A DNA stretch of 64,000 nt from sequence record OR449013; one strand, written 5' to 3'. This DNA comes from Escherichia phage Mangalyan. The notes beneath the pieces are model-generated. The model was not told the origin of the DNA, did no database searches, and was given only the letters and a program-made list of their open reading frames with translations. How positions within the stretch are numbered: the stretch's first letter is position 1; each line of letters opens with the position of its first letter. The translations under genes were made by a program, and so were the position numbers. Shown here piece by piece: positions 12,568-31,515 of the stretch.

Positions 12568-13551
12568 ATGATGACAAAGTTAACTCTTGAGCAAATTTTA
12601 ACACTAAAGCAACAAGGATACACTAATAGACAAATTGCTCGTGAATTTTTAGGCCGTGAGTCACGTGAGAGCTGGATCCGACTACAGCTTAAACGTGCAC
12701 AAGAGAATATGTCAGAGATTGTAGGAGAAGCAACGGAGCGCTTCCTTGAAGAGCACAAAGGTGCTAAAGTTTGGGTGTATGATACAGAGACATCCCCAAC
12801 AAACGGCTGGTTCTTTGGGCACTATAAGACCAACATTCAAACCTGTGGTATTGAAGTTATGCCCTATATGCTAACTTTCGCAGGTAAGTGGTTAGACAGC
12901 TCTAGTGTGGTTGACTGCGCTCTTCCAGATTACAAAATGTGGGATGAGGATATTCACAATGATCTCGAATTGATTCAGGATTTGTGGTATTATCTGGATA
13001 AATGCGATGTCGCAGTAGCCCACAATTCAGGTTTTGACTGCGGGTGGGCCAACCAACGATTTGCATTTCACGGGTTGCCTCCAACAAGCCCCTACAAAGA
13101 GGTTGACACCCTTAAAATGATCAAGAAGGCATTCCGTTTGAATGCAAACACTTTAGAGTATGCATGCAAATACTTCCAACTGGCCCGACAGAAACTGATT
13201 GACCACACATTTGAAATGTGGATCAAGTGTGTCCATGGCGATCTTGAGGCATTTAAACAGATGCGGGAGTATAATGTTGGTGATATCCTGTCTCTGGAAG
13301 GCTTGTATTTGCTGGCTCGCCCGTTTGCTAAGCAGCACCCAAACATGTCATTGTACTACCAGGACGAGGAGCCAAAGGTTCGTTGCCCACGCTGTGGTGG
13401 AGAACACCTTCACGAGGAAGAAGCTTTGGCGTATACTCAGCTGAGTGCATTTAAAACATACCGCTGCGAAGGTTGTGGATCTGTTGTTCGTGATCGTAAC
13501 AACATCCGTACCAGAGAAGAGATGAAAAACACCCTGATTCAGATAATCTAA
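12568..13551 (+). CDS. DEDD-type 3'-5' exonuclease with N-terminal HTH and C-terminal zinc ribbon
   Basis: Exo I VWVYDTETSP, Exo II HNSGFDCGW, Exo III YNVGDILSLEGLY; N-terminal LKQQGYTNRQIAREF; C-terminal CPRCGG ... CEGCG. Confidence 0.65.
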   Translation: MMTKLTLEQILTLKQQGYTNRQIAREFLGRESRESWIRLQLKRAQENMSEIVGEATERFLEEHKGAKVWVYDTETSPTNGWFFGHYKTNIQTCGIEVMPYMLTFAGKWLDSSSVVDCALPDYKMWDEDIHNDLELIQDLWYYLDKCDVAVAHNSGFDCGWANQRFAFHGLPPTSPYKEVDTLKMIKKAFRLNANTLEYACKYFQLARQKLIDHTFEMWIKCVHGDLEAFKQMREYNVGDILSLEGLYLLARPFAKQHPNMSLYYQDEEPKVRCPRCGGEHLHEEEALAYTQLSAFKTYRCEGCGSVVRDRNNIRTREEMKNTLIQII

Positions 13552-13557
13552 CAAGTA

Positions 13558-13587
13558 GAGGGAGGCTTGCGCCTCCCTTTTCCTTTT
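13558..13587 (+). terminator. rho-independent terminator
   Basis: stem GGGAGGC / GCCTCCC, loop TTGC, then TTTTCCTTTT. Confidence 0.55.
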
Positions 13588-13596
13588 GGAGGCACT

Positions 13597-14415
13597 TTGA
13601 GCAAGAAAGAGTCTAACGACAAGTATTACACAAACCCAGGGTATGCAGAATATCTTGTTGGTAAAGTAAAAGATAAGTATGGGAATTGTGCATACGTTGA
13701 GCCTTCTGCTGGAAGAGGTTCTTTTTCAAAACTATTTTCAGAGATACTGTCGTACGATTTAGTACCAGATCCTGAATTTGAAGGACCAACACCGTGCATT
13801 CAGGCAAACTTCTTGGAGATGCACCCCAAGGCAGATGTCTTCATAGGTAACCCACCATTTGGCAAGAATTCATCTTTAGCTTGCAAATTCTTTAACCATT
13901 GTGCATCATTGCTAGAGCTTGGCGGGGCTATAGCCTTCATCTTGCCACGGACATTTGAAAAAATATTTTTTTCAAACAAACTGGACATGTCTATGCACCT
14001 TGTCTACAGCGAAAGGTGCCCTAAGAACTCGTTTTTACTTAATGGCAAACCTTATGACGTGCCATGTGTTTTCCAAATTTGGGAGAAAAAGGCGTGCAAT
14101 AGGGATCCTGTAGAGATTGGAGAGAATAAGTTATTTTCTTTTAGCACACCGGATGACTACGACTTCTGTGTAAGACGTGTTGGGTATAACGCTGGAAAAG
14201 TATTGGGTGATGATGATCCAAAATCTGAAGAATCTACATATTTCATAAAATCTTTAGTTGACGGTGTTGACAGAGTGTTTGCTGAATGCTATTCTTCTTT
14301 TCAAGAAGAAGCAGGTAAGACTGCTGGAATGAAGAGTATAGGCAAGAAAGAACTACAATACATTTTGGAGACCCGGTATGATCAAAAGCATAGACTTGAC
14401 CAAAGAACTTGCTGA
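13597..14415 (+). CDS. N6-adenine DNA methyltransferase, gamma class (TaqI/Eco57I-like catalytic domain)
   Basis: KYYTNPGYAEYLV, motif I VEPSAGRGSF, motif IV FIGNPPFG; ORF-track start 13567 is a TTG inside the terminator hairpin, so TTG 13597 (4 nt after GGAGG) is preferred but uncertain. Confidence 0.75.
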   Translation: MSKKESNDKYYTNPGYAEYLVGKVKDKYGNCAYVEPSAGRGSFSKLFSEILSYDLVPDPEFEGPTPCIQANFLEMHPKADVFIGNPPFGKNSSLACKFFNHCASLLELGGAIAFILPRTFEKIFFSNKLDMSMHLVYSERCPKNSFLLNGKPYDVPCVFQIWEKKACNRDPVEIGENKLFSFSTPDDYDFCVRRVGYNAGKVLGDDDPKSEESTYFIKSLVDGVDRVFAECYSSFQEEAGKTAGMKSIGKKELQYILETRYDQKHRLDQRTC

Positions 14416-14836
14416 TGCAAAAGCTTTTGGTGAGACAGCGGTACAAAGAGGCCAGGCTATGGGACTGGCACTACCTTTCGTCTTAAAAGAGCACTTTACA
14501 GATTTTCAACTTATCAAGGGTGATAAGGGAATTCTTATCCTGGAGCATAAGTTGAGTAAGAAACGCTATAAAGTTGTTTTTAATTCTAAAGCTCCAACAA
14601 AACTGGGATTCAGAACTTACAATCTTAACCCATCCTACACTAAGGGTGTAGGAAGAGTAGAACAACAGCATTTCAGTGCTAGAGCTTCTTTAGCCCCCTT
14701 GATGCTAAATTTTTCAGGGGTGGCTTTAGGATACCTTGACAAGAAAAGAGTTCTTCATGTCCGTTTCACAGACTTTGTAACGCTTTTAGCTAACAATGAG
14801 GTAGATGAAAAGGGACGTGTAAAAACAAACTTCTAA
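14378..14836 (+). CDS. hypothetical protein (152 aa)
   Basis: ORF overlapping 3' end of methyltransferase gene. Confidence 0.45.
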   Translation: MIKSIDLTKELADAKAFGETAVQRGQAMGLALPFVLKEHFTDFQLIKGDKGILILEHKLSKKRYKVVFNSKAPTKLGFRTYNLNPSYTKGVGRVEQQHFSARASLAPLMLNFSGVALGYLDKKRVLHVRFTDFVTLLANNEVDEKGRVKTNF

Positions 14837-14863
14837 TAACGCATAGTATGATTGGAGACCGCA

Positions 14864-15055
14864 ATGACACTAAAGTTAACAGTTCCAGACAGCTTTTCAG
14901 AAAACTTTATCCCAGAAATGATGGATAAGATGCGATCATTGCTTGATCAGATTGAAGAGGCTGTTTGGGAAGACGATGCTGTAGTGGCTAACGAGCTGGT
15001 AGATAAGTGTAAAAGTATTATTGATGCAGTTGAAGAATACCACGGAGGTTTTTGA
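14864..15055 (+). CDS. hypothetical protein (63 aa), acidic
   Basis: ATG 14864 after GGAGACC; ORF-track TTG 14852 less likely. Confidence 0.45.
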   Translation: MTLKLTVPDSFSENFIPEMMDKMRSLLDQIEEAVWEDDAVVANELVDKCKSIIDAVEEYHGGF

Positions 15056-23618: not shown

Positions 23619-24881
23619 CAGACTCCATTCATCACATTGAGTTTAGGACTGGATACCTCGGTCTTTGGTAGAATGATTACCAAAAACTACTTGAAAGTCC
23701 ACAAAATGGGTCTTGGTGAAGAACGTATTACACCTGTATTCCCTAAAGTGCTGTTCTTCCTGGAAGAGGGTGTTAACATGAACCCTGGGGATCCTAACTA
23801 TGATTTGAAACGATTAGCTCTGGAATGCTGTGCAGAACGTATCTACCCTGACTTCGTATCTGTACCACTAAATAGAAAAGTGACAGGCTCGACAGATGGC
23901 AAAGTAACGAGCATGGGTTGCCGGAGTTTTCTTAGCAAATATAATGACTTGGAAACAGGTGAGGAAAAATACCTTGGCAGATTCAACTTGGGTGTTGTTA
24001 GCCTTAACCTGCCAATGATTGCGGCAAAAGCTAAGACGGAAGGTGTTGATTTCTTTGCAGTTCTTGACGAATACTTGGATCTTGCATACGAGGCTCACCT
24101 TGTAAGGGTTAACCGTCTAAAAGGAACAAAGGCAGGGCAGAACCCCATCATGTGGTGTGAAGGCGCTCTTGCTCGCCTGGATCCTGAAGAAAGTATTGAT
24201 AAACTCTTCTATGACGGGTACGCTTCCATCAGCATTGGGTATATTGGTGTGTATGAAACCTGTCAGATTTTGGGCAGAGAGGGTGACAAGGCTTTAGCTC
24301 TTGGAATCCTTCAGCACATGAGAGATGCTTGTGAGCGATACAAGAAGGAAAGTAGACTAGCGTTTAGCTTGTACGGCACCCCTTCTGAGAGTCTATGCTA
24401 TAAAGCTGCAACCTGTCTGGATCGTGAATATCCTGAAGTGTTGAAGCACGAGCATGAATATCTCACCAACAGTTTCCATCAGCCAGTATGGATCAATAGC
24501 TCTCCTTTTGATAAGTGGGCGTATGAGGAAGGTTTTGCTATGATCTCCTCTGGTGGCAACATCGGATATGTAGAGACACCGAATCTGAAAAACAACTTAG
24601 ATGCTTTAGAGGCTCTTGTTGACTTCGGGTATAAACACATTATGTATTTTGGTATTAACCAACCTGTGGATAAATGTCTCAAGTGTGGTTTCTCTGGGGA
24701 GTTCAGTGCAACAGCTAAAGGCTTTGTATGCCCAGAGTGTGGAAACCATGAAGAGGGAACGATCAGTGTGATCAGACGTGTGTCTGGATACCTTTCCAGT
24801 CCTAACTCCCGTCCTTATAATAAAGGTAAGCAAGCGGAAGTTATCGAGCGAGTTAAGCACTATGGAAGTTGTAGTTGCTGA
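23619..24881 (+). CDS. nrdD: anaerobic ribonucleotide reductase NrdD, exon 2
   Basis: glycyl-radical motif RRVSGYL near C-terminus, zinc ribbon CLKCG ... CPECG; frame open from 23580; 5' boundary set by inferred 3' splice site. Confidence 0.8.
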   Translation, partial: QTPFITLSLGLDTSVFGRMITKNYLKVHKMGLGEERITPVFPKVLFFLEEGVNMNPGDPNYDLKRLALECCAERIYPDFVSVPLNRKVTGSTDGKVTSMGCRSFLSKYNDLETGEEKYLGRFNLGVVSLNLPMIAAKAKTEGVDFFAVLDEYLDLAYEAHLVRVNRLKGTKAGQNPIMWCEGALARLDPEESIDKLFYDGYASISIGYIGVYETCQILGREGDKALALGILQHMRDACERYKKESRLAFSLYGTPSESLCYKAATCLDREYPEVLKHEHEYLTNSFHQPVWINSSPFDKWAYEEGFAMISSGGNIGYVETPNLKNNLDALEALVDFGYKHIMYFGINQPVDKCLKCGFSGEFSATAKGFVCPECGNHEEGTISVIRRVSGYLSSPNSRPYNKGKQAEVIERVKHYGSCSC

Positions 24882-24945
24882 TACTTGACAAAAGCCACAA
24901 GGATGTGGCACCATACAGATGTTTAGGGAAGTTAGGAAACAAGAG

Positions 24946-26079
24946 ATGGCTAAATTATCGACAGAAGAGTTTATAGAGAAGGCGAAAATCATTCACGGTT
25001 ATAAATACAATTACAAGAAAACAGTGTACGTGGATTGCTATGCGAAGGTTTGCATTACCTGTCAAATCCATGGAGATTTTATGCAAGCACCTTGTCAACA
25101 CTTGCAAGGTCGTGGTTGTCCTTTTTGTGCAAAACTTTCTCGTGCTACAAAGTGTAATAAAGGTCTTAAATTTGTAGAAAGAGCCAAAGAAATCCATGGA
25201 GATAACTATGACTACTCTCTCGTATACTACAAGACTTGCAAAGATAAAGTAGAAATAATCTGCAATACTTGTGGAAATCACTTTACACAGACACCTGACA
25301 ATCATATAAATTTGAAAAGAGGTTGTCCAGTTTGCAAGGGGTCAAGAATCTCACAAAGCAAAACCAAACCTCATGAAAAGTGGGTTGAGGACATAGAGAA
25401 GAAAAATACTTATATTGAAATATTAGAAGAGATCACCACTGGGTGGAATAAAGTATTATGTCGTTGCAAAGTTTGCAACCACGAATGGTCAGCTACGCCT
25501 GTTATCCTTAAGCGTGGTCACGGCTGCCCCGGATGTGGCGGATCTATGAAAAAGACCACTGAAGAGTTTATCCAGGACGCTGTGGCTATCCACGGGAACA
25601 AGTATGATTACTCTAAAGTGAGGTATGTGAATTCACACATCAAGGTTACAATTGTTTGCACAGATCATGGAGATTTCTGTCAATCCCCTACCCAGCATTT
25701 AGGAGGGGGAGGGTGTCCTAAATGCACCAAAAGAGGATTTTTATCCCACGATTGTGGTAAACTTTACATTATGGTTGATGATCCGGAAGTGCCTACATTT
25801 ATGAAAATAGGTGTCAGTCATAATGAAAGTAAGCGAAGAGACCAGATACTTAAAAGTGCACAAAGATCTGGAGCTGGTATCTGCGATCTGTACATAGTGA
25901 AAACGTTGGAAGGATCAACTGAAAACATGCTGGCTGTAGAAAAATCTATGCACAAAGCCTTCAGTAAATATAAAATAAACTTCCCTGTAAAATTTGATGG
26001 TAGCACCGAATTCTTCTACTACAGGCCTGAGGTGTTCAGCACAGTGGAAGCAGCGTACAAAGAGATCTGCGGTAAATGA
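24946..26079 (+). CDS. GIY-YIG-like (T5orf172-type) domain protein with four N-terminal zinc-ribbon repeats; putative free-standing homing endonuclease
   Basis: four repeats of H-G-x-x-Y-x-Y ... I-x-C ... HG-x-F ... GCP-x-C; C-terminal LYIMVDDPEVPTFMKIGVS ... RR ... E resembles GIY-(10)-YIG spacing. Confidence 0.6.
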   Translation: MAKLSTEEFIEKAKIIHGYKYNYKKTVYVDCYAKVCITCQIHGDFMQAPCQHLQGRGCPFCAKLSRATKCNKGLKFVERAKEIHGDNYDYSLVYYKTCKDKVEIICNTCGNHFTQTPDNHINLKRGCPVCKGSRISQSKTKPHEKWVEDIEKKNTYIEILEEITTGWNKVLCRCKVCNHEWSATPVILKRGHGCPGCGGSMKKTTEEFIQDAVAIHGNKYDYSKVRYVNSHIKVTIVCTDHGDFCQSPTQHLGGGGCPKCTKRGFLSHDCGKLYIMVDDPEVPTFMKIGVSHNESKRRDQILKSAQRSGAGICDLYIVKTLEGSTENMLAVEKSMHKAFSKYKINFPVKFDGSTEFFYYRPEVFSTVEAAYKEICGK

Positions 26080-26131
26080 TCGTAGAAAGATACACATATC
26101 TTAAACATGCTATAAACTAAGGAGGTACAGT

Positions 26132-26248
26132 ATGTCTACAGGCATTTATAAAATTTGCAAGTGTGGTTGTCGTTGCAATCTTCGTTGGTGCAAGGCACTG
26201 GACGATTTTATTTGGCATTGTCCTGAATGCGATGCAGAGTACTTATAA
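26132..26248 (+). CDS. small Cys-rich protein (38 aa), zinc-ribbon-like
   Basis: below ORF-track cutoff; ATG 8 nt after TAAGGAGGT; MSTGIYKICKCGCRCNLRWCKALDDFIWHCPECDAEYL. Confidence 0.55.
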   Translation: MSTGIYKICKCGCRCNLRWCKALDDFIWHCPECDAEYL

Positions 26249-26263
26249 GCATAAGGGGTCGAA

Positions 26264-26368
26264 ATGCGGAAATCTATCAAGAAAATCAAGATAAAATTGT
26301 TAGCACTGAAGCGTAAGTATAAAAAGTTATACGGCTTCATCAAATGGACTTTTATAAGTTTATCTTGA
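26264..26368 (+). CDS. small basic protein (34 aa)
   Basis: below ORF-track cutoff; ATG after AAGGGG; Lys-rich. Confidence 0.35.
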   Translation: MRKSIKKIKIKLLALKRKYKKLYGFIKWTFISLS

Positions 26369-26399
26369 ATAGAAGCACACCACAGAAGAGAGGTTCCTT

Positions 26400-26636
26400 A
26401 TGGTAGGTGTCTGTGTAAAAGCTAACAGATGGTTTACATTCGGCAAGGATTACGAAATTATCTTTCATTCGGACAGAGCCACAACAGTAGAAAGCGATGA
26501 TGGGTGCTACTGGTTCGTTAGTTACCAGGGTGATGGGTATTATAGATCTACTGATTCCAGAGGGGAAGAAGCTGTTTTCTTAGATAGAGCTTATTGTGGG
26601 CCTGAATATCCCTACCTCAAAGAGGGTAAGGAATGA
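26400..26636 (+). CDS. hypothetical protein (78 aa)
   Basis: ATG after AGAGAGG; overlaps nrdG start by 4 nt. Confidence 0.5.
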   Translation: MVGVCVKANRWFTFGKDYEIIFHSDRATTVESDDGCYWFVSYQGDGYYRSTDSRGEEAVFLDRAYCGPEYPYLKEGKE

Positions 26637-28928: not shown

Positions 28929-29978
28929 ATGAATTTAACACCTCGCAGCACCATGGTACACGGCATGAAAGAAAAACAGAACGGTTTCGAACCTATGAGT
29001 AATAAAATGTTTGGTATGCCGGGGGGTATTATGGAAACATATAGCTACCCAACACCTGTTGTTGACCACGTTCTTTATATCGACGATTTGGAAGACTTAC
29101 AAGATCATATGTCTCGTCTGCAGACGATCCGTATGGCTCAGCCGGAAGAAAGCATTCGGGTGATCATCAATAGCCCAGGGGGCTGCGTGCACATTGCAAT
29201 GGCTTATTTGCAGGCATTCCGCGAGTCTCAGGCAAGCGTTGTTGCACACGCTGAAGGGATGTGCTGCTCGGCAGGAACAATCTTATGGCTGGGCTGCAAA
29301 GAACGAACTGTGGCTCCGGACACAGAATTTATGTTCCACTACTATCAAGGTGGCACCTATGGTAACGGTGTGAACATGAATACCCAGATCAACTACTGGA
29401 AGAAACGTTTTGAACGCCTGATCGAAAAATACTACGGTGGGGTGTTAACAGAAGATGAGATCGCATCCATCACAGCTGGCGGTGAAGTGTGGTTAGATGG
29501 AGAAGAACTGGCATCTAGAACTGGTGCTATCATTCTGGACGATGAAAACATTCAGCGCATTCAGAATGGACAGAAACCGAAAAAGCTTTTGGCAAAAAGT
29601 GATGAAGAAGGTGTGCTAGGCGAAGCAGGCCTGCCAGAGATTCACCAATGCACATCTCTGGACGAGCTGGTTCATGCTGTTGAGTCTGCAAAAGCAAATG
29701 GTATGAAAGATGATGTTCACACTGTGTTCCTGAATCTGCAGATGGAAAGTGGCGAGACCGTCCGGATCGCCCTGGGTGAAATTACTTCAGAAGATCTGCA
29801 GCGATTCTCTGTCGTCGAACTTCAGGATATTCTGTCTCAATTGAAGACTACTCTGAACGGCGGTGAAGAGGTTAAGGTGAAAGACAAGACCCGCAAGCGT
29901 CTGATGGACAATATCATTAAAACAGCAAAAGAGCTCAATGAAAAAATCCTGGGTGCAGGAATTGTCGAAGAAGCTTAA
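28929..29978 (+). CDS. ClpP-like serine peptidase (S14 fold) with C-terminal extension
   Basis: IRVIINSPGG, GMCCSAGT (Ser in G-x-S-x-G-like context), FMFHYYQ (His) in ClpP order; 349 aa. Confidence 0.65.
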   Translation: MNLTPRSTMVHGMKEKQNGFEPMSNKMFGMPGGIMETYSYPTPVVDHVLYIDDLEDLQDHMSRLQTIRMAQPEESIRVIINSPGGCVHIAMAYLQAFRESQASVVAHAEGMCCSAGTILWLGCKERTVAPDTEFMFHYYQGGTYGNGVNMNTQINYWKKRFERLIEKYYGGVLTEDEIASITAGGEVWLDGEELASRTGAIILDDENIQRIQNGQKPKKLLAKSDEEGVLGEAGLPEIHQCTSLDELVHAVESAKANGMKDDVHTVFLNLQMESGETVRIALGEITSEDLQRFSVVELQDILSQLKTTLNGGEEVKVKDKTRKRLMDNIIKTAKELNEKILGAGIVEEA

Positions 29979-29991
29979 ACATTAATTCTAA

Positions 29992-30014
29992 AGCCCTCTT
30001 CGGAGGGCTTTTAT
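29992..30014 (+). terminator. rho-independent terminator
   Basis: AGCCCTC TTCG GAGGGCT followed by TTTTA. Confidence 0.65.
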
Positions 30015-30029
30015 GATCTGGAGATTTGC

Positions 30030-30563
30030 ATGACTTGTGCTAGAAAACCTGATGAACAACGTAACGCCTACGATGAGTATGTGACACCGGAGTGGTGTGC
30101 AGAAGGGCTGTATGACCTTATTCCGTTCCCAGAAGACTGGACCTACTTAGAGCCTTGCAGGAATAGTGCCTCAGGTGTGTTCTACTCCCGTATGCCGTTA
30201 GGATCTGCATGGGGAGAAATACAAGAAGGTGTTGACTATCTGAATACAGAATACAACCATGTTGACTGTATTATCACCAACCCACCATACAGCCTGGCTC
30301 GTGAGTTTGTAGACAAGGCGTTGAAAGATGCTGACGTAGTTATTATGCTTTTGCGTCTTAATTTTCTGGAAAGCAAAGCCAGATTTGAATGGTGGCTTGA
30401 TAATGCACCTACTACTGTGATCACAATATCTAAGCGTCCATCATTTCAATCAAACGGCAGAACTGACGGGCAAGCATATGCATATTTTGTGTGGGATAAG
30501 AAAAACCGTTTAGACTTGCCGCCGTTTATGTGGTTGGCACCCCCAGAGGTAGACCTGAAATGA
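30030..30563 (+). CDS. short gamma-class methyltransferase catalytic domain (NPPY motif)
   Basis: YVTPEW, LEPCRNSASG (motif I-like), IITNPPYS (motif IV); only 177 aa, no obvious target-recognition domain. Confidence 0.6.
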   Translation: MTCARKPDEQRNAYDEYVTPEWCAEGLYDLIPFPEDWTYLEPCRNSASGVFYSRMPLGSAWGEIQEGVDYLNTEYNHVDCIITNPPYSLAREFVDKALKDADVVIMLLRLNFLESKARFEWWLDNAPTTVITISKRPSFQSNGRTDGQAYAYFVWDKKNRLDLPPFMWLAPPEVDLK

Positions 30564-30844
30564 AAATGAGTGCTAAGGACAAATTACACCAGCTAGCGCT
30601 AAAACGCCCTGTAACGCTCCCTGACGAGCTTAACTCCATTTATGATGCGATTGTAGGGGAGATACAAAATAAAGCGTTAGCAGGCTTTCTGGGGTGCGGA
30701 TTTTCGATAAATCTACCCTCGCATCTCTCAGATTACTTCCCGCACATTGTTGGAGATTTAAGGGCAGGAGGTCTGCAGGTAGATGTTGTTGGCATCTCCC
30801 CAGAGAAAAATAATACGGTTGCCTACTTGACAGTAACCTGGTAG
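30560..30844 (+). CDS. hypothetical protein (about 94 aa)
   Basis: ATG 30560 overlaps stop of methyltransferase ORF (ATGA), GAGG upstream. Confidence 0.45.
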   Translation: MKMSAKDKLHQLALKRPVTLPDELNSIYDAIVGEIQNKALAGFLGCGFSINLPSHLSDYFPHIVGDLRAGGLQVDVVGISPEKNNTVAYLTVTW

Positions 30845-30880
30845 TTGTGTATTGTTGTTTTCAACAAGAGGGGGTCATTT

Positions 30881-31120
30881 ATGTACAAGTCATTTTCAAT
30901 CTACTCAAGACAGGCGAAACACTACACAGAGATCCTGATCACTCAGAAAAAATCTGTGGAAGGTGAGTGGGAATATCACCATAAAATGTTGCGTCCAGAC
31001 TGGGTTTTTGATAGACTTATTGCTATGATCCCTCTCGGAGAAGTATACCCTCTGACAGCCCATCGCGATGCTTGGGATTTAATTGATTACATAGATTCAT
31101 TTAAGGAGCCTAGATTATGA
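30881..31120 (+). CDS. hypothetical protein (79 aa)
   Basis: ATG after AGAGGGGG. Confidence 0.5.
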   Translation: MYKSFSIYSRQAKHYTEILITQKKSVEGEWEYHHKMLRPDWVFDRLIAMIPLGEVYPLTAHRDAWDLIDYIDSFKEPRL

Positions 31121-31515
31121 AGATTGAGATTACTAAAGAAGGTAAGAAAGTGTCCGGCAACTATGCAACAGTAATTCGGGATTTAATGTTTGAAGCCACC
31201 AAGATCGGTACATCTAAAGTTGGTCAAACTGTTAGTGTGAAAAGTAATATCTCCACAGGAGAGAAGGTATTCATTGTGGTCAAAGGGCAGGATCCCGTGG
31301 AAGGAACAGTGGGCCGAGGTGGCTACCTGTGCATTTCTGAAGAGCCGCGTATGTTAGTGGCTGACGCTACTATGGGTGGGAAACGTGTGTGCGAGGCGGA
31401 TGAGGTAATGATTATCCAACCTGTTGATCCAGATGACCCAGCAACTTGGGTGGTAGGAAATGAAATCTTCTCTTTAGAAGAGTTATCCTTCCCAGCACCG
31501 CGCTCTGTTCAGTAA
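31117..31515 (+). CDS. small acidic protein (132 aa), MKIEI-type family
   Basis: starts MKIEIT; AAGGAG RBS; overlaps upstream stop. Confidence 0.55.
   Translation: MKIEITKEGKKVSGNYATVIRDLMFEATKIGTSKVGQTVSVKSNISTGEKVFIVVKGQDPVEGTVGRGGYLCISEEPRMLVADATMGGKRVCEADEVMIIQPVDPDDPATWVVGNEIFSLEELSFPAPRSVQ

Follow-up and report, generated by a model that had tools for sequence, protein, structure and literature searches.

The closest described relatives of the enzymes considered here are the gamma-class N6-adenine DNA methyltransferases M.TaqI, CamA, M.BseCI, HsdM and MmeI, of which M.TaqI is a 421-aa protein with a large C-terminal recognition domain. Smaller adenine methyltransferases are also on record. 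One is HP1 orf13, to which a later paper refers as the HP1 Dam methyltransferase that had been cloned, and another is Hia5, a 281-aa Dam-like enzyme with a DPPY motif and a divergent recognition region. In an Stx prophage the methyltransferase M.EcoPA8orf6770P is co-transcribed with PNB-2, a small nucleic-acid-binding protein encoded next to it, and the two proteins form a 1:1 complex in which PNB-2 sets the substrate preference (PMC10810198). With regard to restriction-modification (R-M), the BASEL Vequintavirinae that carry both of the methyltransferase genes discussed below are described as 'exceptionally susceptible' to all six of the R-M systems tested, including EcoRI, EcoRV and EcoP1.

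We analysed a 64,000-nucleotide stretch of DNA from Escherichia phage Mangalyan (OR449013; the window), which is rV5-like Vequintavirus sequence. Both methyltransferase regions within it share 95-99% DNA identity with ~120 GenBank phage records, among them rV5, FFH2, JES2013, Murica, slur16 and the BASEL phages AlexBoehm and DrSchubert. The two genes, here ORF-A and ORF-B, are already labelled 'putative (DNA) N6-adenine methyltransferase' in the matching records and are ordinary, known core genes of a very common E. coli phage group. Our literature search found papers that only list the genes and no methylome or biochemical study of an rV5-like methyltransferase, and the rV5 genome paper mentions neither enzyme nor methylation, the sole digest shown there being with XbaI. 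Both genes are housed in the replication and nucleotide-metabolism region, ORF-A between a DnaQ-like exonuclease gene on one side and dNMP-kinase, thymidylate-synthase and NrdAB genes on the other and ORF-B after NrdD/NrdG, PhoH and ClpP-like protease genes. Around 20 unannotated 'Campylobacter phage' records (MG0656xx; e.g. C5, A147, D1) are 97-99% identical to window positions 13000-15000 and 29500-31200, and the sequence that matches the ORF-A region best is among them. These entries are probably coliphages that were mislabelled or got in as contaminants. In AlexBoehm the CDS for the class III anaerobic ribonucleotide reductase is annotated as two joined pieces (L001 787-2954, by offset ~24300-26500 in the window), a split for which an intron or a programmed frameshift could be responsible.

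The reading that we favour, with a probability of roughly 0.55, is that the window encodes two intact M.TaqI-like N6-adenine methyltransferases, ORF-B acting as a stand-alone enzyme and ORF-A as an R-M-style enzyme with a non-cutting partner, ORF-D. The features of the ORF-A region are as follows.

13557..13580, plus strand: terminator-like hairpin, rich in GC and with a T-run after it, in the gap from the stop of the DnaQ-like exonuclease gene (13551) to ORF-A
13588..13592, plus strand: Shine-Dalgarno sequence GGAGG, 4 nt upstream of the ORF-A TTG, read from the sequence
13597..14415, plus strand: ORF-A, 272-aa gamma-order N6-adenine-type methyltransferase (motifs, fold, dN/dS 0.06-0.14)
13624-13638, plus strand: ORF-A motif X (YYTNP)
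13696-13725, plus strand: ORF-A motif I (EPSAGRGSF)
13843-13863, plus strand: ORF-A motif IV (NPPF)
14378..14836, plus strand: ORF-D, 152-aa protein of phrog_9938 (no assigned function), 38-nt overlap with the end of ORF-A (dN/dS 0.006-0.04)

The start codon of ORF-A at 13597 is TTG and its homologues begin at the equivalent MSKK...DQ(F/Y)YT position in the alignment. We found 758 of these homologues at ~250-290 aa with conservation reaching the C-terminus, and ORF-A-type genes are present in 225 phage records. An AF2 model (pLDDT 91) divides the protein into a catalytic domain (~residues 1-168) and an alpha/beta subdomain of ~100 aa (~169-272), in which R194, G196, G200, G244, S247 and E252 are invariant and for which comparison with known recognition domains gave no match. 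ORF-A fits the PADLOC MTase_II pair PDLC03255/03256 over almost all of its length, one match covering residues 28-253 (profile 25-249 of 269, E 2e-33) and the second residues 3-256 (profile 7-264 of 269, E 5e-24). PHROGs places it in phrog_5172, where function is unassigned, and the best PDB sequence matches of the family profile are Ta1320 and METTL5 with weak E-values of 5e-4 and 0.014. Precomputed matches to PF26055 (Mtase_EDM2) exist in many ORF-A homologues, some at 46-50% identity, but none in ORF-A's own cluster (P0121), and our Pfam search also gave none, even for P0133. The same search gave no match to PF02384 (N6_Mtase, HsdM) in ORF-A or ORF-B, and across the curated Pfam and NCBIfam libraries both proteins had sub-threshold matches only (Eco57I, EcoRI_methylase, Dam and TIGR01712).

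Two ORF-A orthologues (L018 and L019) were considered as pseudogenes and rejected as such, their internal stops sitting at codon 269 of 272 and giving a slightly shorter tail. In Cronobacter phage GAP32, a jumbo phage, a defence-like gene encoding a DUF262 protein lies upstream of the ORF-A-type methyltransferase (L016 1596-2780) and matches three defence models of PADLOC (NsnA, PD-T4-2_A and HEC-05).

The ORF-B region contains the following features.

29990..30011, plus strand: hairpin AAAGCCCTC-TTCG-GAGGGCTTT, behind the ClpP-like protease gene (stop 29978), read directly
30020-30023, plus strand: GGAG, between this hairpin and the ORF-B ATG (30030)
30030..30563, plus strand: ORF-B, 177-aa single-domain 'mini' N6-adenine-type methyltransferase (motifs, fold, dN/dS 0.037)
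30078-30095, plus strand: ORF-B motif X (YVTPEW)
30147-30176, plus strand: ORF-B motif I variant EPCRNSASG (A-x-G, with an NS insertion)
30273-30293, plus strand: ORF-B motif IV (NPPY)
30560..30844, plus strand: ORF-C, 94-aa protein of phrog_12158 (no assigned function), its start overlapping the ORF-B stop (ATGA)

A GC-rich hairpin and then a Shine-Dalgarno site thus precede both ORF-A and ORF-B and each may mark a transcription-unit boundary or an attenuation point. A terminator scan did not flag the hairpin at 29990-30011. An earlier note made from the sequence had described two gamma-class catalytic domains at these positions; both ORFs, all of the motifs that it quoted and the ATGA overlap of ORF-B and ORF-C are present, and the gamma order (X-I-...-IV) of the N6-adenine-type motifs is kept family-wide. 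In common with the gamma class, ORF-A and ORF-B have the class I Rossmann SAM-methyltransferase fold, the order X, I, IV and an N-terminal SAM region, but in comparison with M.TaqI ORF-B is without a large recognition domain and the extra part of ORF-A is only ~100 residues long.

Structure prediction of ORF-B alone, one of the checks that the earlier note proposed, returned a complete methyltransferase Rossmann core (AF2 pLDDT 87, pTM 0.85) with only ~20 residues beyond the last core strand, and a separate recognition domain is absent as had been suspected. As ORF-B residues 8-161 align with ORF-A residues 1-168 (hhalign 97.5%, E 5e-12), the distinction of a 'full' enzyme from a 'bare' one holds good. 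In a search of 5.8 billion proteins we identified 312 ORF-B homologues, of which the best 120 are 132-264 aa long, mostly 160-180, share a common end point and are in no case near the size of M.TaqI. The family alignment contains D-x-Y-x-TP, EPCxGxG (EPCR(NS)ASG in the rV5 clade), an acidic motif II and D-Y-L followed by TNPPYS, MLLRLNFLES, RPSF and TD...YAWFVW, ending ~20 residues further on, and R109, R118 and R136 are conserved basic residues in ORF-B. An HMM search, also proposed in the earlier note, had a divided outcome as ORF-B matched phrog_799 'DNA methyltransferase' with E 8e-67 while the Pfam and NCBIfam models scored only below threshold, with 19.2 bits for PF05869 Dam (cut-off 28.1) and 16.1 bits for TIGR01712 (cut-off 97). 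Against PDB sequences the family profile found M.TaqI (E 2e-5), whose motif I (ACAHG) shares the A-x-G form with ORF-B in the profile alignment; the ORF-B core is equally near to METTL5, ErmC', DIMT1 and DNA enzymes. Genes of this type were counted in 577 phage records, with Phapecoctavirus and phages of Vibrio, Aeromonas, Listeria and Campylobacter among them.

Some ORF-B homologues of 219-227 aa (P0004, P0012, P0031 and others, from Klebsiella, Erwinia and Salmonella relatives) have a charged, low-complexity C-terminal tail of ~55 aa. For some of them the record annotates 'DNA methyltransferase' across the match to ORF-C, which the tail does not resemble, and the tail may be an annotation artefact or may be translated.

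ORF-C follows ORF-B in 189 phage records comprising Vequintavirus and its Klebsiella, Cronobacter, Salmonella and Erwinia relatives, with 36-45% identity in the other genera. This synteny is confined to Vequintavirinae-type phages, ORF-C being absent from those of Phapecoctavirus type. No ORF-C homologue was found next to four distant ORF-B homologues (L009-L012), where the downstream genes encode a tailspike, a PDDEXK_15 protein and unknowns. In comparison with a Vequintavirus differing at 7% of nucleotides ORF-C has a dN of 0 and a dS of 0.42, a constraint stronger than is usual for hypothetical proteins of this size. Sequence searches with ORF-C and ORF-D against PDB, Pfam, NCBIfam and PADLOC gave no match. 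A gammaproteobacterial symbiont has, in a prophage-like region (L010 3519-3899), a gene for a 126-aa PDDEXK_15 protein that follows an ORF-B-type mini-methyltransferase and overlaps it by 1 nt; a relationship of ORF-C with it was considered and dropped, there being no similarity.

It is ORF-A and not ORF-B that has a conserved small partner. ORF-D is present in 185 phage records. In 119 of these, of Vequintavirus type, the identity is at least 80% and in the other 66 it is under 60%, those sampled from the latter group being of Phapecoctavirus type. An exhaustive HMMER search recovered seven representatives only of the ORF-D family and every representative that we looked up (phAPEC8 gp077/gp078, phage loci L003-L005, the marine contigs L021 and L022, then L023 and the partial L020) has an ORF-A-type methyltransferase gene, 39-54% identical to ORF-A, directly downstream of it. 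The two genes overlap wherever the full gene was visible. Their order is methyltransferase then ORF-D in Vequintavirus and ORF-D then methyltransferase elsewhere. No ORF-D-like neighbour was detected beside the methyltransferases of L006, L007 and GAP32. A 395-aa protein (P0139) that resembled a fusion of ORF-D-like and ORF-A-like sequences proved to be a gene-caller read-through, with a TAG between the two genes on the contig, and this artefact exposed the conserved adjacency of ORF-D and ORF-A. On the metagenomic phage contig L003 (438-460) ATT appears to be the start codon of the ORF-A-type gene, with AGGAGG before it and the TAG of the ORF-D-like gene just upstream, and a second ORF-A-like N-terminus further downstream (1242-1397) may be a tandem paralogue.

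For bacterial relatives of ORF-A a scan of one genome per species yielded 80 loci. In 23 of the 80 the next gene downstream encodes a member of a ~215-aa family matching REase_II PDLC03460. A smaller protein of ~163 aa adjoins the ORF-A relative in three loci, downstream in L033 and L101 and upstream in L104, and matches REase_II PDLC03550 with E 1e-14 in L101 and E 2e-12 in L033; all three of these proteins have a catalytic motif in the form D...E-V-K, E-S-R or D-Q-K. When the ORF-D profile was compared with the 2692 ORFs of the bacterial loci its sole match was the small restriction enzyme of L101 (E 3e-4). Comparison of the ORF-D family with the three small restriction enzymes by hhalign gave a local probability of 78% (E 1.9e-5, 96 columns) and a colinear global alignment of 133 columns (E 2.3e-5), scores that are moderate (probability 51-78%) and involve only three restriction-enzyme sequences. 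The blocks common to both are G..GL....L..HF, Y-x-V, L-x-PS...G-x-GR and G..L. A relationship of ORF-D with the ~215-aa family was rejected, a local match in L007 (LNP....GVGR) having vanished at profile level (probability 0.1%).

The ORF-D family differs from these enzymes at the expected active site. The (D/E)XK position is occupied by K/R-V/T-x in 11 of 11 members, and a helix Glu that is invariant in the small restriction enzymes corresponds to the invariant Pro33. The other invariant residues are Y64, P85, K89, G90, R93 and G146, and no Asp, Glu or His is invariant. We therefore consider with moderate confidence, on the basis of these alignments, that ORF-D is probably a restriction-enzyme-derived protein without canonical catalytic residues. 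More tentatively, and at somewhat less than even odds, ORF-D would be derived from a small type II restriction enzyme as a neofunctionalised protein with a dead nuclease, retained through strong purifying selection in at least 185 phage genomes as the obligate partner of ORF-A. It could supply recognition or activation as a detached subunit, shield specific sites against cognate host restriction enzymes or regulate the expression of the methyltransferase, and the pair would form a 'disarmed R-M module' that virulent phages have domesticated.

The earlier note held ORF-B to be too short for a complete enzyme and suggested that it was either decayed or split with 30560-30844. A methyltransferase completed by ORF-C would account for the missing recognition domain, for the ATGA overlap, which suggests translational coupling, and for the adjacency of ORF-C across genera under the constraint described above. 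The lengths and common C-terminal end of the best 120 of the 312 homologues argue against it, as do the whole Rossmann core, the excess of records with ORF-B (577) over those with ORF-C (189), the loci and Phapecoctavirus-type phages in which ORF-C is missing and the absence of any in-frame ORF-B/ORF-C fusion among the records examined. With regard to decay, comparison of ORF-B with a divergent Vequintavirus (86% nucleotide identity) gave a dS of 0.91, a dN of 0.034 and a dN/dS of 0.037, and this strong purifying selection indicates that the gene is neither decayed nor truncated. A phage adenine methyltransferase of ~170 aa also has a precedent in HP1 orf13, which at only 173 aa aligns with the ORF-B family. 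An incomplete ORF-B is accordingly unlikely; our checks of synteny, fusion and similarity found no evidence for ORF-C as part of the enzyme although the two proteins may interact, given their adjacency in 189 records. The lack of a recognition domain could also be read as the mark of a non-specific adenine methyltransferase like Hia5 or M.EcoGII, laying down an m6A blanket that protects broadly against restriction, and R109, R118 and R136 could contact any DNA backbone. We regard this as very improbable since the BASEL phages, which carry an identical ORF-B, are sensitive to the tested systems, a result that excludes dense non-specific adenine methylation, and methylation of the Hia5/EcoGII type was rejected for ORF-B on differing family, motif order and size as well as on this sensitivity.

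A substrate other than DNA is a somewhat more serious alternative, though still a minority one, in which one or both enzymes methylate adenine N6 in rRNA or tRNA and ORF-D steers ORF-A to RNA in the manner of PNB-2. The cores of ORF-A and ORF-B are about equally similar to METTL5, Erm, KsgA and DNA enzymes, and the Stx-prophage MT-A70 'DNA adenine methyltransferase' needs its adjacent small protein and prefers 16S rRNA, but that enzyme has DPPW and belongs to another family. We searched the window for tRNA genes as possible RNA substrates and found none in its 64 kb; rV5 has six of them elsewhere. DNA is favoured as the substrate by the R-M ancestry of ORF-A, seen in its fit to type II methyltransferase models and in the restriction-enzyme genes beside its bacterial relatives, by the kinship of ORF-B with the HP1 Dam family and by the location of both genes within DNA-replication and nucleotide-metabolism modules. 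In a further alternative ORF-A and ORF-D form a complete and active phage-borne type II R-M system in which ORF-D, as a small nuclease, degrades host DNA through a non-canonical site and ORF-A protects that of the phage. The alignment of ORF-D with the ~163-aa REase_II family, the tight overlapping R-M-like arrangement and the very strong purifying selection on ORF-D would all fit. Catalytic residues are relocated in some PD-(D/E)XK enzymes, and the alignment around the motif in ORF-D may be off by one residue, leaving room for a non-canonical active site. Set against this are the lack of any invariant acidic or histidine residue, the replacement of E-x-K in every member and of the helix Glu by Pro, and the REase_II models, none of which matches ORF-D or its phage homologues, and we consider active cleavage by ORF-D to be improbable.

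On the favoured reading of two intact methyltransferases, ORF-A and ORF-B would be distantly related, SAM-dependent enzymes of the gamma (M.TaqI-like) type that most likely methylate specific short motifs of phage DNA during replication. The analysis shows the fold, motifs, family size, selection and gene linkage and the loss of (D/E)XK in ORF-D, and we infer the activity, the DNA substrate and the part played by ORF-D. ORF-B would operate as a stand-alone Rossmann core, with any target selectivity coming from loops of the core. ORF-A, with its catalytic core and C-terminal subdomain, would form a fixed two-gene module with ORF-D, the latter having probably descended from a small PD-(D/E)XK endonuclease that accompanies the ORF-A family in some bacteria and most likely persisting, its canonical catalytic residues lost, as a non-cutting DNA-binding or specificity subunit or as a regulator. 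Palindrome-avoidance counts over the window gave no usable specificity hint for either methyltransferase. GATC (368 sites, O/E 1.11) and TGCA (O/E 1.17) are not avoided and the most depleted 4-mer palindromes are CTAG (O/E 0.54) and GTAC (O/E 0.66).

Such methylation could guard against cognate restriction enzymes only and would not be a general shield. The view in the earlier note that these genes protect against host restriction survives at best in this narrow form, as the BASEL phages fall to all six R-M systems and broad protection is consequently unlikely; their sensitivity fits motif-specific enzymes with targets unlike those of the six. Carrying these methyltransferases does not predict restriction resistance in Vequintavirinae, a point of relevance to the choice of therapeutic phages. 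For annotation, the 577 phage records in which a recognition-domain-free enzyme of ~177 aa is the normal state mean that such genes should not be flagged as truncated. The unexpected element of our computational analysis is the conserved pairing of a methyltransferase with what appears to be a disarmed restriction-enzyme-like protein, which suggests that virulent phages have retained an R-M module with its nuclease disarmed yet not discarded. If true, this would be a clear case of a restriction-enzyme scaffold reused for a non-cutting function and would assign a role to an unannotated and highly conserved phage protein family.

In comparison with other known systems, type I R-M, which combines HsdM with an HsdS specificity subunit containing two recognition domains, differs in that ORF-A and ORF-B do not match PF02384 and the neighbouring ORF-C (94 aa) and ORF-D (152 aa) have no Pfam match. 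Enzymes of the Hia5/Hin1523 type are alpha-class and Dam-like, have ~280 aa and a DPPY motif and methylate adenine almost completely, so that many restriction enzymes are blocked, and ORF-B does not conform to this type. METTL5-TRMT112 and archaeal Ta1320 (COG2263, rRNA m6A) share with ORF-A the NPPF motif and a small core, and the dependence of a methyltransferase on a small partner recalls TRMT112, but ORF-D bears no resemblance to that protein. EDM2 is a large nuclear PHD-finger protein of plants and its N6-adenine methyltransferase-like (ELP) domain, PF26055, is found in ORF-A homologues and not in ORF-A's own cluster. The Stx-prophage pair of M.EcoPA8orf6770P and PNB-2 (PMC10810198) offers a functional analogy to ORF-A and ORF-D with no sequence relationship, being an MT-A70 enzyme (DPPW) with a winged-helix partner and a 16S rRNA substrate in contrast to the gamma order of ORF-A (NPPF) and ORF-B (NPPY). 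HP1 orf13 is a full member of PF05869 (E 7e-75) and aligns with the ORF-B family with an hhalign probability of 95.7% (E 1e-8). The HP1 Dam-type enzymes (PF05869/TIGR01712) and ORF-B are alike in their size of ~170 aa and in D-x-[YW]-x-TP ... NPPYS ... V(V/I)MLL, but ORF-B retains a motif I of EPCxGxG type that HP1 orf13 is without, and on these alignments the ORF-B family is best regarded as a sister of the PF05869 mini-enzymes and not as a member. Finally, in type II R-M (PDLC03255/03256 with PDLC03550 or PDLC03460) ORF-A matches the methyltransferase models and its bacterial relatives directly adjoin these restriction enzymes, whereas ORF-D departs from the D...(D/E)XK of the adjacent nuclease and its module is carried by virulent phages.
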